NCBI GenBank assembly: GCA_963766715.1 | Contig: CAVYBH010000001.1 | Span: 32,001 to 96,000, forward strand | Length of the DNA: 64,000 nucleotides | Reading direction: 5' to 3' | DNA from: an uncultured delta proteobacterium | GTDB taxonomy: Bacteria > Myxococcota > Myxococcia > Myxococcales > Anaeromyxobacteraceae | In this document: one piece after another, positions 6,820 through 12,490 of the stretch | Layout: every line of letters starts with the position of its first letter | How positions within the stretch are numbered: position 1 is the stretch's first letter | Program-made: the position numbers and the translations under genes | Notes under the pieces: model-generated | Told to the model about the DNA's origin: nothing | The model's database searches: none | Seen by the model: only the letters and a program-made list of their open reading frames with translations

Positions 6820-7490
6820 ATGCGTTTCGAGCACACGAAGGTCGATGGGCCGCGCGAGCGGCTGCTGGCGTCGGGGCCGGCTGCGCTCTCCGACGCCGAG
6901 CTGGTCGCGCTCATCCTGGGAACGGGGTCGGCGCGCCTCTCGGCCCGGGCGGCGGCGCTGGCGCTCGTCGAGCGCGCGTCCCTCCCCGAGCTCGCCTGGG
7001 CCTCGCCGGAGGAGCTCTCGGGCCGGCCGGGGCTGGGCCGGCGCGCGCGGCGGCGCTCGCCGCCGCGTTCGAGCTGGGGAGGCGCGGAGCCTGGTCGCCG
7101 CCCCGGCGAGGCGAGCGGATCCTGGAGCCGTCGCGGGTGGCCGAGCTCATGCGCCCGTCGGCGCACGCCGACCGCGAGTGCTTCCACGTGGTGCTGCTCG
7201 ACGTCCGCGGCCGGCTCCTCCGGGCCGAGCGGGTCGCCGAGGGCTCGCTCACCCAGTGCCCCGTCTCCCCGCGCGACGCGCTCCGCCCCGCGGTGCGGGA
7301 AGGGGCCCACGGGGTGATCTTCGTCCACAACCACCCGTCCGGCGACCCGTCGCCGAGCGCCGAGGACGCCGATCTCACCGAGCGGCTCCGCGCCGCCTCC
7401 GAGCTGGTGGGCGTGCTCGCCCGGGACCACGTGATCGTGGCCTCGGGCGGCTACTTCAGCTTCGTGGAGGCGGGGCGGTGGAGGAGGTGA
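6820..7490 (+). CDS. radC: RadC family JAB-domain protein (frameshift ~7045)
   Basis: PRERLL..GPAALSDAELVALILGTG in one frame; HNHPSGDPSPS.ED and DHVIV in the next. Confidence 0.88.
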
Positions 7491-7549: not shown

Positions 7550-7786
7550 ATGCGCATCACCAGCAAGGGACAGGTGACCATTCCCCAGGAGATCCGCGAG
7601 AAGGCGGGACTGCTCCCCGGCACCGAGGTCGAGTTCACCTGCGAGGGGAAGGTCGTCCGCATCCGGCGCGCCCGGACGCCGGCGCGACCGGGGAGGGGAG
7701 CGGCGCTGGTGGCGCGACTCCGCGGGACCGCCACGGTCCGCATGAGCACCGACGAGATCATGGCGCTCACGCGTGGTGAAGAGTGA
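7550..7786 (+). CDS. vapB: AbrB/MazE/SpoVT-type antitoxin (VapB)
   Basis: MRITSKGQVTIPQEIRE...LPGTEVEF; RBS AAGGAG; overlaps the toxin start. Confidence 0.85.
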   Translation: MRITSKGQVTIPQEIREKAGLLPGTEVEFTCEGKVVRIRRARTPARPGRGAALVARLRGTATVRMSTDEIMALTRGEE

Positions 7787-8193
7787 CGGTCCTCGTCGAC
7801 AGCAACGTCCTCATCGACGTCGCGGGAGACGACCCGGTCTGGGGAGACTGGTCGCGCAGCGCGCTGGCGCGATGCGGGGACGCCGAGGTCCTGGTGGTGA
7901 ACCCGATCGTCTACGCCGAGGTCTCGGTGGCGTACGCCCGGGTCGAGGACGTCGAGAGGGTCCTCCCGCCGAGCGACTTCCGGCGGGAGCCGCTTCCCTG
8001 GGAGGCGGCCTTCCTGGCCGGGAAGACCTACCTGGAATACCGGAGCCGGGGAGGGCGGAGTCGCTCGCCTCTCCCCGACTTCTACATCGGCGCCCACGCG
8101 GCGGTGGCCGGCTACCGGCTGCTCACCCGGGACGCGGTTCGCTACCGGAGCTACTTCCCGCGGCTCGACGTCATCGCGCCGTCGGGAACGTGA
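7783..8193 (+). CDS. vapC: PIN-domain toxin (VapC)
   Basis: VLVDSNVLID, IVYAE, PDFYIGAHA, LLTRD acidic PIN residues. Confidence 0.9.
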   Translation: MTVLVDSNVLIDVAGDDPVWGDWSRSALARCGDAEVLVVNPIVYAEVSVAYARVEDVERVLPPSDFRREPLPWEAAFLAGKTYLEYRSRGGRSRSPLPDFYIGAHAAVAGYRLLTRDAVRYRSYFPRLDVIAPSGT

Positions 8194-8212: not shown

Positions 8213-8692
8213 CTAGAACGGGATGTCGTCGGCGCTGCCGCCGCTGCCGCCACTCTCGTCGAACGGCGGTCCACCCGAGTCGTCGGGCCCGCTGGAGCCG
8301 CGCTGCCCGCCGCCTGCTCCACCGGCGCCACCCGCACCGCGAGCGCCACCTGCGCCGGCCGCGCCACCGCCCAGGAACCGGACCGAGTCGGCCACGACCT
8401 TCACGCGGGAGCGCTCCTGGCCCGACGTCTTGTCCTGCCACTTGTCGGTCTTGAGCCGCCCCTCGACGTAGACCTGCCGACCCTTGGCCAGGTACTCGCC
8501 GACCTGCTCGGCCTGCTTCCCCCAGACCTCGACGTCATGCCACTCGGTCTCTTCCTTCTTCTGGCCCGAGGCCTTGTCGGTCCAGCTGCGGGAGGTGGCG
8601 ATGCGCAGGTTGGCGACCGCCTGGCCGCCGGAGGTGTAGCGGACCTCGGGATCCTTCCCGAGGTTGCCGATCAGGATGACCTTGTTGACCAT
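8213..8692 (-). CDS. ssb: Single-stranded DNA-binding protein
   Basis: [20 protein letters not shown], Gly-rich tail, DDIPF terminus. Confidence 0.97.
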
Positions 8693-8782
8693 GGCGAAAC
8701 CCTTCCATTTCGTCGCCTGGCTGCGAGCGGAAAGTTCGAGCGGGACGATGCGAAACGCACCCTAGCAAGGCGATCTGACAGG

Positions 8783-9673
8783 TCAGGCCCCGTCGTACCG
8801 GATGTCGCCCGCCCCGGCGGGATCGTAGCCGGGGATCGCGGCGACCTCGGCGCGGAACCGCCCTCCCTGCGCCACCTCGCAGACCCGCACCACGTTGCGG
8901 TCGCCCAGGTCTCTCGCCCGGACGAGCAGGCCGTAGGCCTCGCGAGCCAGCGGAAGGAACCCCAGGCCGAGCGCGTGCGCCCAGGCACGGGACGCGACGC
9001 CCAGGTCCGCGTCTCCCCGGGCCACGGCGCACACCACCTCGAGGTGGGAGGCGCAGACCACGGCCCGGCCACCCACCTCGCGGGCGTCGAGGCCCGCGGC
9101 GGCCAGCGCCTCGTCCAGGTACTTCCGGACGCCGGCGGACGGGGGCCGCGAGGCGAGCCGGCCCTGCCCGAGGTCCTTCGCCCTGGGTGGACGCCCCTTC
9201 GCCACCAGCCCGATCTCGCGGGTGACCAGGTGGATGCGGGCGATCCGTTCCTCGCCGGCGTGGGTGGGAAAGCCCCCGGCGTGGCTTCCGGAGGCGAAGA
9301 CCGAGCCCTCGCCGAGCAGGCGGAATCCGGCTTCCTTGTCGGCCTGGACGAAGCCGATCACGGTCCCCGACTCGCGCAGGAGGCGGAGCAGGATCGCCAC
9401 CACCTGGTCGCCGTTCGCGGCGATGAGCGGCGGAGCGCCCTGCGACGCGGCGGTCCCCATCGATGTTGGACCTGGGGACGCCTCGGGCTCGACCTGGCGA
9501 GCGGCTCTTCCGGGCTTCGACCAGGAGAGCACTTCCGCCCTGTCGAACCGCCACTCGGAGCCCACGCGCCGGGCCGGGAGCCCCTTCTTCAGCAGCCGGT
9601 ACACGTGCTGCGGGTGGACCCGCAGGAGCTTCGCGACTTCCTCGGTCGTCAGCAGCGCGGGAGGGCTGGGCAT
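8783..9673 (-). CDS. Excisionase-type HTH + PBP-like (molybdate/tungstate-sensing) transcriptional regulator, TaoR-like architecture
   Basis: LLTTEEVAKLLRVHPQHVYRL...LPARRVGSEWRF N-terminus; C-terminal PBP-like SHLEV..AV..G.AD.G, LGL.FLPL..E.Y.L, GYD...G; divergent from modA. Confidence 0.75.
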   Translation of the reverse strand: MPSPPALLTTEEVAKLLRVHPQHVYRLLKKGLPARRVGSEWRFDRAEVLSWSKPGRAARQVEPEASPGPTSMGTAASQGAPPLIAANGDQVVAILLRLLRESGTVIGFVQADKEAGFRLLGEGSVFASGSHAGGFPTHAGEERIARIHLVTREIGLVAKGRPPRAKDLGQGRLASRPPSAGVRKYLDEALAAAGLDAREVGGRAVVCASHLEVVCAVARGDADLGVASRAWAHALGLGFLPLAREAYGLLVRARDLGDRNVVRVCEVAQGGRFRAEVAAIPGYDPAGAGDIRYDGA

Positions 9674-9751
9674 GGCCCCTGCATGATAGCGAACCCATGA
9701 GGAAGCTGATTCACGTAAACGGGGCTAGGCGTAGTTTGTTATGGTGTGTCA

Positions 9752-10586
9752 ATGCTTGACGATCGTGCTTGTCATTGCATCACGGTCGGGCGCCTGTCGC
9801 GCCGGGGGTGGCTCGTCTCGCTCCTCGCGCTGCTCCTCGCTCCGGCGTGGGCCGGGGCCGGCGAGACGCGCACCCTCTCCGTCGCAGCCGCCGCCAACCT
9901 GAAGCCCGCCCTCGACGAGATCAGCCGTCTCTTCGAGGCGAGGAACCCCGGCGTCGAGGTGAAGGCGACCTTCGGGGCCTCGGGAACCTTCTTCGCCCAG
10001 ATCGCGAACGGTGCGCCCTTCGACCTCTTCCTGTCCGCGGATTCGGAGTTTCCGGCCAAGGTGGTCGAGCAGGGGCTCGCCGACGGAAAGGCCTTCCCCT
10101 ACGCGTACGGAAAGCTGGTGGTCTGGGTCCCCAAGGACTCGAAGCTCGACCTGGACGCGAAGGGGCTCGCCGCCCTCGCCGATCCCTCGGTCCAGGAGAA
10201 TCGCCATCGCCAACCCGGACGTGGCCCCGTACGGGCGCGCCGCCCGGGCCGCCCTCGAGAAGGCCGGCGTCTACGAGCGCGTGAAGGCGCGCCTCGTGAT
10301 GGGCCAGAACGTGAACCAGGCGGCCCAGTTCGCGCAGTCGGGAAATGCGCAGGCCGCCTTCCTGCCGCTCTCGCTCGCCGGGACGCCGCCGCTCTCCATC
10401 GAGGGACGGGCATGGCTCGTGCCGCCGGCCACCTATCCCCGCGTCGAGCAGTCGGGCGTCGTCCTCCAGGGAACGAAGCATCCCGCCCTGGCAAGGGAAC
10501 TGGCCGCGTTCCTCACCGGGGACGCCGCGCGGCAGGTGTTCGCGCGCCACGGCTACGACCTGCCCGGGAATGGAGTGTCGAGATGA
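9752..10586 (+). CDS. modA: Molybdate ABC transporter substrate-binding protein (frameshift ~10198; start uncertain)
   Basis: VAAAANL, FGASG..FAQI.NGAPFDLFLSAD, IANP..APYGRAA, GQNVNQ. Confidence 0.88.
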
Positions 10587-11485
10587 AGCGGGTTCCCGCC
10601 GTGGCCGGGTTGCTGGCTGCTCTCGTGATGGCGCTTCCCGTCCGCGCGTCCACGGATGGCGACCCGGGCGCGACCCCGCACGCCGCCGAGCCTTCCGACC
10701 TGGGCATCCTCGACTTCTTCACGAACGGCTGGAGCCAGGACTGGGTGCACCGGCGCCGCGAGACGCGCGACATGGCGCTCCTCCGGGTCACGACCAACTT
10801 CCTCGAGCGGGAGTTCCGGTTCGACTACGCGTACACGAGCCTCCTCGGCAACGCCCGGTACACCGGGACGGACTTCGCCAGCTCGCTCATGGCCTACGCC
10901 GTGAACCGGCGGCTCATGCTGGAGATCATCGCGAACTACCAGTGGAACGTGCACCCGGGCGCGTCCCCGGTGAACGGCGCCGGCGGGGCGGCCCTCCTGC
11001 GATTCCAGCTCGTCGACACGGCCACGGCCTCCTATTCCACCCAGATCCGGGTGTCGGCGCCCAACCGGGGCATCGGACAGACCCAGACGACGTTCGGCTA
11101 CTACCTGGCCGGCTGGCAGGACGTGCGAGCCTGGATCCCGGCGCTCGGCCGCGTTGGCCTCTACTACTCCTTCGAGTACGACAACCTCCAGGGCCCGGCC
11201 GCCGCGGGCGCGACCAGGAACTCCATCTCCTACGATGTATCGGTCGCCCGGACCTTCACCGACGCCTCCACGCCGGTGGTGGGGGACCTCACCGCCTTCC
11301 TGGAACTCTACGGGACGACCCCTCTCGACGGTGCGAGCTCCGGGAAGACGGTGCTGAGCCTCACGCCGGGGGTCCGCTTCTGGTTCGTCCCGAAGAACTC
11401 GCTCTCCCTCGGCGTGGACCTGCCGGTGAGCCACTCCCCGCCGTATTCCGCTGCCTGGCGCGCGACGTACATCCTGAACTTCTGA
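10583..11485 (+). CDS. Exported hypothetical protein, probable outer-membrane beta-barrel
   Basis: Signal peptide, aromatic-rich alternating strands, C-terminal YILNF; ATGA-coupled to modA. Confidence 0.55.
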   Translation: MKRVPAVAGLLAALVMALPVRASTDGDPGATPHAAEPSDLGILDFFTNGWSQDWVHRRRETRDMALLRVTTNFLEREFRFDYAYTSLLGNARYTGTDFASSLMAYAVNRRLMLEIIANYQWNVHPGASPVNGAGGAALLRFQLVDTATASYSTQIRVSAPNRGIGQTQTTFGYYLAGWQDVRAWIPALGRVGLYYSFEYDNLQGPAAAGATRNSISYDVSVARTFTDASTPVVGDLTAFLELYGTTPLDGASSGKTVLSLTPGVRFWFVPKNSLSLGVDLPVSHSPPYSAAWRATYILNF

Positions 11486-11524
11486 CGTGGAGCGCGCGAC
11501 GCTGGGCGGCCGGTTCGGGAGCCG

Positions 11525-12490
11525 ATGGCCCGGGTTTCGCATATCTCTCTGCGCTTGGCCCTCCGACCCCACCTCGACGACGTCCGGAGCCGCGCCCGCG
11601 GCGCGTTCCTGGGCCTGGCCCTCGGCGACGCCCTGGGCGCGACCGTCGAGTTCATGCTCCCGGGCGAGATCCGGGCGGTCCACGGGGTCCACCGGGAGCT
11701 CACCGGTGGCGGCTGGCTGAAGCTCCGGCCCGGCTCCGTCACCGACGACACCCAGATGTCCATCTGGATGGGGCGGGCCATCGCCAACGGCGGGGGCTGG
11801 GACGCCCGGCGCGCCGCCGTGCACCTCGCCGCCTGGCTCCGGACCGGACCGGCCGACGTGGGGAACACCGTGCGCCGCGGGCTCCGCCGCTTCGTCGTCG
11901 ACGGAACGCTCGAGGGGGAGCCGAGCCCGGGCGACGCCGGCAACGGCGCGGCCATGCGCGTGCTGCCGGTGGCGCTCGCCACGCTGGCCGATCACCGGGC
12001 CATGTCCCGCACGGCCATCGAGCAGGGGCGCATCACCCACCACCACCCCCTCTCCGACGCCGCCTGCATCCACGTGGGCGAGCTCATCCACATGGCGTGC
12101 CTCGGCCTCGGGATGCCGAGGCTGCGCCGGGCCTCCGACGCCTTCGTGGCCGAGCACCCGGAGTTCGCCTTCTCGCCGTACCCTGGGCTCTCCGGCGGCT
12201 ACGTGGTCGAGACGGTCGCCACCGTCCTCCACTTCCTCCACGCGACGAGCAGCTTCGAGGAGACGCTCGTCGGGATCGTGAACCGAGGCGGCGACGCCGA
12301 CACCACCGGCGCCATCGCCGGCGCGATCGCCGGCGCCTACCACGGCCCGGAGGGGCTCCCCGGACGCTGGCTGAAGCGGCTCGATCCCGAGGTTCGCGAG
12401 GAGGCGGAGTGGCTCGGGGACCAGCTCGTGGCCCTCTCCCCGCTGGGACGGGGCGAGCCTCCCCACCTGACCCCGCGCGCCGGGGCCTAG
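11525..12490 (+). CDS. draG: ADP-ribosyl-[dinitrogenase reductase] glycohydrolase
   Basis: [58 protein letters not shown]; nif context. Confidence 0.92.

Follow-up and report, generated by a model that had tools for sequence, protein, structure and literature searches.

What passes through an outer-membrane barrel whose gene is coupled to that of a molybdate-binding protein, and is such an arrangement reserved for nitrogenase? The question is raised by a locus in a 64,000 nt stretch of DNA (the window, G000:C1:32001-96000) from the genome assembly GCA_963766715.1 of an uncultured member of the Anaeromyxobacteraceae (designated G000; 4.2 Mb, 72% GC, 84.6% complete). Here a gene for a regulator with HTH_17 and PBP_like domains (HTH-PBP), modA, and a gene for a 300 aa protein (P0001) stand immediately ahead of draG-draT-nifA-nifH and, as a preliminary description of the DNA had put it, head the nif island. 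The best explanation is that P0001 represents a branch of the COG4313/SphA/FapF superfamily of barrels that has no name, is patchy in its distribution and was recruited to the molybdate/tungstate regulon. We are highly confident that it belongs to the molybdenum/tungsten (Mo/W) regulon, while it seems reasonably likely that it is a diffusion channel of that regulon, admitting molybdate or tungstate and feeding ModABC, a substrate and a mode of regulation that we infer from its neighbours and relatives.

The preliminary description pictured the product as an exported, aromatic-rich protein of about 300 aa ending in Phe, and this agrees with its signal-peptide-like N-terminus (MKRV...VRA, judged by sequence; 278 mature residues), its 36 F, W or Y residues out of 300, and a terminal Phe shared with 119 of 121 homologues. 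The proposed outer-membrane beta-barrel is likewise supported by structure prediction, since the AlphaFold2 model (71-sequence alignment; pLDDT 91.8, pTM 0.83) has 12 strands after residue 76 and closely resembles known barrels. FapF was the top structural match by both Foldseek and VIA-align (Z 21.9, rmsd 2.5, 221 residues aligned), tied in VIA-align with the COG4313 channel Pput2725 (4RL8; Z 21.1, rmsd 2.8, 221 aligned), and autotransporters and KdgM/NanC ranked below these two. Sequence identity to FapF is 10%, and to 4RL8 it is 8%. A complex of barrel and ModA, predicted with alignments for the two proteins that occur together at L010, scored 0.00, with no controls folded, and has no bearing either way.

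No family in Pfam or NCBIfam matched the barrel, and a sequence search of the PDB gave no matches to the barrel profile or to the regulator. Homologues numbered 273, and a profile search of 1.84 billion representatives retrieved 217 proteins; distant clusters extend to Verrucomicrobiota and Planctomycetota. None of the 71 close, aligned members reached the gathering score of PF13557, but 6 of 47 more distant (mostly full-length) profile matches that were scanned passed this cut-off, and for this reason we place the family as a distinct branch of the COG4313/FapF superfamily and not within PF13557; the lead given by the Atlas was a cluster with 15% PF13557. The family shares with the COG4313/PF13557 channels (Pput2725, SphA and TcpY) a 12-stranded barrel, roughly 280 residues long when mature, and a segment ahead of strand 1 (PMC4493636); transitive sequence similarity links it to that group, and its mature length falls in the 270–320 aa range. 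It differs from them in its low identity to 4RL8, in the replacement of the GD/PTG motifs, and in its neighbours, which are Mo/W genes and not genes of aromatic catabolism. One homologue, P0133 (651 aa), consists of the family barrel and about 350 further residues, and also ends in Phe.

Gene neighbourhood and regulation of the barrel family

Gene context was sampled at 34 genome loci and the best 80 of 92 metagenome loci (pattern scans), 114 loci in all, of which 31 and 45, respectively, were informative in having at least 600 bp upstream of the barrel gene. A Mo/W gene lay within 4 kb of the barrel at 24 of the 31 genome loci and 35 of the 45 metagenome loci, rising to 26 and 39 when an operator motif was also accepted, while only 0.96% of G000 lies within the same distance of such a gene. 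The search for homologues in similar neighbourhoods, which the preliminary description had suggested, thus gave a strong link to Mo/W genes. The divergent partner of the barrel gene is an HTH-PBP regulator in Myxococcota (where the gene may instead stand alongside mop, modD and modABC), HTH-TOBE-modABC in Thermoanaerobaculia and modE-modABC in Geothrix. In one alphaproteobacterium the barrel gene lies beside tupAB-like genes. It is the first gene of a mod operon at L089 and L112, and follows modA at L135. ModA was present in all 32 barrel-bearing genomes (here and below, counts out of 32 omit L031 and L039, which are second loci of genomes already included).

The barrel is associated with three types of known or presumed Mo sensor, namely ModE, HTH-TOBE and TaoR-like HTH-PBP proteins, and these types are interleaved across several well-supported clades of a quick barrel tree. 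The tree was used solely for this purpose; its only branch support is SH-aLRT, and it has long branches for L036, L138, L133 and L031, and was built after rows shorter than 230 aa, with stops, or more than 90% identical had been dropped, so that the 114 loci gave 103 sequences (including that of the window) and finally 72.

Three kinds of upstream motif were found. The consensus for ModE of Escherichia coli (PMC545781) was found, allowing 0–4 mismatches, ahead of 7 of 92 barrel genes (L035, L037, L121, L126, L127, L128, which is a perfect match, and L139), compared with 0.33% of random segments, and since the pattern came from outside the barrel sequences it is the cleanest independent operator evidence. 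The direct repeat TATACG-N4-CATACG was present upstream of 20 of 92 barrel genes, chiefly in the HTH-TOBE group (background 1.2%). For the HTH-PBP group, a Gibbs search of 22 promoters returned a 10 bp direct repeat, GGTAACAATA-GGNAACAT, that also scored in 13 of 70 barrel promoters outside the training set (background 1.0%), some of them near-copies of training rows, and in many of the promoters between regulator and modA in Anaeromyxobacteraceae; palindrome enumeration in this group detected no shared inverted repeat, and the signal is a direct repeat. Operator motifs were also present at 2 genome and 8 metagenome loci where the barrel has no Mo gene nearby.

Two of these patterns extend beyond the barrel. 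In Thermoanaerobaculia (L007:5320-5727 and relatives), a compact HTH_17 plus TOBE regulator heads modABC and has the TATACG repeat conserved in the shared promoter, making regulator and repeat a candidate sensor/operator pair for Mo. Similarly, the GGTAACAATA-type repeat lies between the HTH-PBP regulator and modA in the L143-L172 promoters across Anaeromyxobacteraceae, including the complete genomes G001, G002 and G006, and is a candidate operator of the TaoR-like branch. Regulator homologues were found in 31 of 92 genomes of the family and were divergent from modA at 20 of 29 loci fetched; in 16 of these 20, modB directly follows modA.

Several further genes recur at these loci. A second unannotated, Phe-ending protein of about 288 aa is encoded tail-end beside the barrel at many loci of the HTH-TOBE type (L007:6857-7723, also L008, L015, L021, L073, L084, L085, L088 and L093); the Atlas ties it to clusters with 13–14% PF13557, and it may be another barrel of the same regulon, although profile comparison of P0001 with this Acidobacterial protein detected no similarity. 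A TrmO_N-domain gene recurs in mod clusters with mop and a QRPTase-like modD (L016:3548-4216, L022:4010-4855, L173:3784-4533), and a same-strand string of barrel, mop and a small Oxidored_molyb protein (PF00174-like, about 160 aa) is seen at L014:6842-7565 and at L020, L025 and L026.

The window locus is arranged as follows, and includes the slot between ssb and draG that varies among members of the genus (G054, G056, G058, G059, G063 and G064 below).

8772..8781: left edge of the variable ssb-draG slot (a 10-mer), from alignment with the slots of relatives
8783..9673, minus strand: HTH_17 + PBP_like regulator of TaoR-type architecture, 296 aa (Pfam PF12728, E 7e-13; PF12727, E 4e-27; both above cut-off)
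9668..9683, plus strand: weak sigma54-like -24/-12 site (3 mismatches), facing modA and overlapping the regulator start
9674..9790: promoter region shared by regulator and modA, collinear with that of G058; degenerate repeat with about 10 bp phasing
9746..10198, plus strand: modA 5' half (TIGR01256 positions 1–87, above cut-off; 83–84% identity to the G058 copies)
10199..10586, plus strand: modA 3' half, in another frame (TIGR01256 positions 98–217)
10583..11485, plus strand: P0001, 300 aa, predicted by AlphaFold2 to be an outer-membrane 12-stranded beta-barrel with a conserved N-terminal segment
11525..16514: nif head, with draG (plus), draT (minus), nifA (plus, frame-shifted), GNAT (plus) and nifH (plus) (TIGR02662 above cut-off; PF07357)
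11526..11541, plus strand: sigma54-like element of draG (2 mismatches), right edge of the slot; in the same place in G058, G063 and G064

The divergent regulator and the coupling of modA to the following gene through ATGA (10583-10586) were both seen correctly in the preliminary description. Its label of a TaoR-like sensor holds for the domain architecture and only that far. TaoR is a tungstate-responsive regulator with HTH_17 and PBP_like domains (PMC11980592, PMC12327845), and the window protein, the only match to PF12727 above cut-off in G000, shares this architecture and a position beside Mo/W transport genes. TaoR controls a tungsten aldehyde oxidoreductase, and no match to aldehyde:ferredoxin oxidoreductase (PF01314) was found in G000, at 84.6% completeness. 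The promoter at this locus is collinear with that of G058 and retains no more of the repeat than phased TGC cores, and control of modA and the barrel by the adjacent regulator would be consistent with this arrangement.

A scan of 8600-11700 for sigma70 promoters and terminators found nothing. As draG has its own conserved sigma54-like element, it need not be transcribed from the modA promoter, and since the 'ATG' at 11525 falls inside that element, the true start of draG is probably further downstream. On the other side of the slot, a MazE/AbrB antitoxin and PIN-domain pair (7550-8193) lies beside ssb, and is present in G058 and G063 and absent from G064.

Lumen and likely cargo

When inward positions are assigned by strand parity on the sequence alignment alone, the lumen comes out as polar, rich in Ser, Thr, Asn and Gln, with near-invariant inward Arg residues (R79, R140, R265 and R293), acidic residues (E77, D81, E114, D180, E241 and D279) and invariant aromatics (W178, Y194, F239 and W267). 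Residues 61–75, ahead of strand 1, are near-invariant, and the structural alignments begin at residue 61 (FapF) and residue 67 (4RL8). Where PF13557-positive relatives show F-G-D and P-T/S-G, the barrel family has G-A-G-G and A-P-N instead; the replaced motifs would correspond to the loop cluster and lateral patch of Pput2725 (Asp92, Thr94, Pro119-Thr120-Gly121).

Free oxyanion is, on present evidence, the somewhat favoured cargo. A number of observations weigh against this, or against the regulon assignment on which it builds. Pput2725 is mostly closed, its N-terminus occludes the lumen, and it was judged an unlikely path for hydrophilic solutes (PMC4493636), which by analogy is the main caution against passage of a free anion; also, by strand parity the lumen has more acidic (9.5 D+E) than basic (5.2 R+K) residues, which does not resemble a plain ladder of basic residues for anions. 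At 5 of 31 genome and 6 of 45 metagenome informative loci there was no Mo gene and no motif, and the exceptions with long flanks include L009, L028, L031, L036, L039, L076, L077, L092 and L106. Some 'Mo gene' calls are weak (L129, at 31% identity, and four matches to the ModE HTH only, at 34–43%). The loci are related and partly redundant, so that after reduction at 90% identity the 72 sequences comprised 49 with a Mo label and 23 with none, many of the latter on short contigs. The TATACG pattern was derived from the same sequences on which it was counted. The window promoter lacks the family repeat profile (-4.3 bits; no match at 3 mismatches), so that an operator in this copy is indicated only by positional conservation and synteny. 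The barrel is also dispensable, being found in 7 of 92 genomes of the family, at least 10 of 301 of the phylum and 2 of 133 Holophagaceae. Finally, three genome loci (L009, L012 and L013) adjoin pst genes.

A phosphate channel, as these last neighbours might suggest, is not favoured, because the repeat of the HTH-TOBE group persists at L012 and L013 (2 mismatches), a sign of rearrangement; L009 is an exception to this account. At L009 (4861-6819) the barrel occurs in tandem duplicate beside pstS.

Of the competing explanations, the one that survives best, although we think it unlikely, is that the barrel is indeed regulated by Mo and that its cargo, in place of the free oxyanion, is an organic carrier or part of a cofactor: a molybdophore, Mo bound to catechol or humic matter, or a pterin or molybdenum cofactor (Moco) precursor. 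The regulon evidence fits this equally well, the characterised COG4313 members TcpY and SphA import amphipathic or aromatic compounds, and such a cargo would suit a lumen with four invariant aromatics and no net basic character. However, the 153 neighbouring ORFs that were scanned contained no recurrent chelator-synthesis or TonB genes (a single TonB receptor, at L028), the recurring partners ModA, Mop/TOBE and TupA-like proteins bind the free anion, and the GD/PTG motifs of the PF13557 relatives, which would map to the lateral patch of Pput2725, have been replaced.

The nif neighbourhood and the split mod genes

The preliminary description took the trio to be dedicated to nitrogenase, and this was not borne out. 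None of the 114 homologous loci has nifH, draG or draT beside the barrel, and matches to a nifA query at these loci were partial, covering the common sigma54-activator domain. Only 7 of the 32 barrel-bearing genomes carry nifH; within the genus, four other nifH genomes have no barrel and the sole other barrel genome has no nifH. In addition, the window modA is the only modA found in G000, which has 10 molybdopterin-oxidoreductase matches.

What can be said for a nitrogenase-supply module, switched on with nif by NifA and sigma54, comes from the slot itself. It holds modA in 3 of 5 nifH-positive genus members (G000, G056 and G058), with modA alone in the latter two, while in G063 it is empty (a short spacer), as in G064, where the 10-mer runs straight into the draG promoter element. 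Ahead of the slot modA of G056 and G058 are sigma54-like sites with 2 mismatches to the consensus, and no such site precedes the same-slot modA of the nifH-negative G054 and G059. The slot of G058 also has an 18 nt remnant like the 5' end of the regulator gene (16/18; 15 of 2000 shuffles as good), and at L006 the barrel is still preceded by the opening 16 bases of modA; these remnants suggest deletions from an older regulator-modA-barrel unit. From such sequence comparisons, the trio may once have stood in the slot of a shared ancestor, and modA at this position may be coupled to nif in some relatives. Yet modA stands beside ssb also in the two genomes without nifH, the sigma54-like site of the window is at chance level (334 sites with 3 mismatches in 829 kb) and is also present at a non-nif regulator locus of G058, and no NifA upstream site was found near the window modA. 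We therefore regard the nitrogenase module as quite improbable, and the barrel as a general Mo-regulon gene that has come to head the nif island only through an arrangement local to this genus.

In the same ssb slot of G054 (L203:520-1392), the gene after modA encodes another barrel, a true PF13557 member, and lies behind a perfect ATGAGAATCATTCTCA-type palindrome, which we take to resemble a Fur box; profile comparison detected no similarity between this barrel and P0001.

The modA gene itself, whose start codon is uncertain (GTG at 9746, ATG at 9752 or one further downstream), is broken by one uncompensated extra base at 10194-10200 relative to six of six intact relatives, a frameshift that had gone unmentioned in the preliminary description. 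Each of the two halves scores more than 62.5 bits against TIGR01256, above its cut-off. Six other genes in or next to the nif region are also frame-shifted relative to relatives: radC (6841-7487) and, between 13437 and 24405, nifA, nifD, nifK, a long nifE-N (nifEN) and nifB, each with at least one shift when compared with G058 and G063, whose copies are intact (nifD, nifK and nifEN were named by position and length; nifA, nifB and neighbours from Pfam). Such shifts along the contig are most likely indel errors of assembly, and with seven genes affected the break in modA is very probably of this kind as well. Contigs from four public sequencing runs, consulted for the modA frameshift, were mixed-strain, and the parts compared lay outside 10194-10200. 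Because of the extra base, the 5' half of modA reads in frame into the barrel as a spurious ORF of 579 codons. A ModA-barrel fusion was rejected on this ground, and the close homologues are all free-standing proteins of about 300 aa (a length-limited search); a search of proteins of 673–2000 aa also found no fusion, which is weak evidence.

That modB and modC do not follow modA, and that ModBC would be supplied from elsewhere, had been predicted correctly. They were located on another contig (G000:C2:199319-201084), behind a histidine kinase and with no modA ahead; modB is TIGR02141, above cut-off, and the modC-like gene has TIGR02142 as its best family (274.7 bits against a cut-off of 285). 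At the matching place G056 has kinase-modA-modB-modC, and G000 has therefore probably lost the operon copy of modA. The genus members G054 and G059 likewise have an orphan modBC and a modA next to ssb, and Anabaena variabilis is already known to have modA apart from modBC (PMC4284476). Both this split and the position beside nif are ordinary or local features that add little.

Direction of transport, proposed working and meaning

Less probable still than a nitrogenase module is that the barrel works outward or structurally, either in FapF-like secretion of a Mo-scavenging peptide or in aid of a resistance-nodulation-division (RND) pump that removes excess W, Mo or other metals. Its top structural match, FapF (PDB 5O65), is the amyloid secretion channel of Pseudomonas, and an AcrB-type cluster is a second frequent neighbour, lying within 6 kb at 16 of the 34 genome loci; a Pfam match to ACR_tran bears this out at L008, L014, L029, L032 and L039. 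Despite the structural match, identity to FapF is low and the context here is of the import type: no fap genes occur among the 153 neighbouring ORFs scanned (in the window it is modA and draG that flank the barrel), no small secreted protein recurred as a possible substrate, and the barrel shares promoters and operons with importers, ModE being a repressor of uptake genes. Where RND genes come directly behind the barrel, they lie on the opposite strand, and none was present among the 40 window ORFs scanned. An unrelated channel travelling with mod genes by chance or shared ancestry is very improbable and largely refuted, since, even if COG4313-type barrels are common passengers (as in G054) and the loci are related, the link to Mo holds in Acidobacteriota and Pseudomonadota as well as in Myxococcota, under three regulator types and in many gene orders, and operators persist ahead of barrels that have no mod gene nearby.

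For the Mo-regulon channel, the following working may be proposed. The HTH-PBP regulator would sense Mo or W and control the divergent modA-barrel transcript, presumably by repression when Mo is plentiful, by analogy with ModE. The barrel, with its confidently predicted fold, would insert in the outer membrane, where its N-terminal segment would narrow the polar lumen and allow molybdate or tungstate to diffuse into the periplasm. ModA, in its established function, would bind the anion and so maintain the gradient, then pass it to the ModBC encoded on the other contig, a pairing suggested by the location of these genes. In this way, the module would serve every Mo enzyme that the cell makes.

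ModABC works at the inner membrane, and with ModE it forms the system to which this proposal adds an outer-membrane component. The likeness lies in the ModA, ModB and ModC-like genes of G000, which are split as in A. variabilis, and in the ModE box at some barrel homologues, while the window regulator is of HTH_17-PBP type and not ModE. A second parallel is offered by the porins of the phosphate regulon, PhoE and OprP/OprO, larger trimeric proteins with basic residues lining the pore. There too a channel gene under the regulon of a scarce oxyanion acts upstream of an ABC binding protein; the window barrel differs in its 12 strands, its plug-like segment and a lumen without net basic character. 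The literature searched contained no description of a Mo-specific porin or barrel family and named no dedicated outer-membrane route for molybdate, although papers on the TaoR and ModE regulons may list outer-membrane genes.

With genomic and operator evidence that independently points to control by Mo, this unannotated, compact and well-folded barrel family makes the entry of Mo across the outer membrane testable. The family is probably an entry gate for Mo in several groups of soil and sediment bacteria, and not one reserved for nitrogen fixation. If so, the COG4313 superfamily would widen from hydrophobic cargo to a metal oxyanion. A stronger version, which we hold only tentatively and at somewhat less than even prospects, is that of a dedicated molybdate/tungstate channel with conserved plug and lumen selecting the tetrahedral oxyanion, in which a fold known until now from hydrophobic uptake and the export of amyloid was rewired to three Mo sensors while moving between soil and peat bacteria. 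Were this true, the family would offer a direct structural test of how a pore tells molybdate from sulfate or phosphate, and entry at the outer membrane would limit the acquisition of Mo in Mo-poor habitats, including for the diazotrophs among the Myxococcota.

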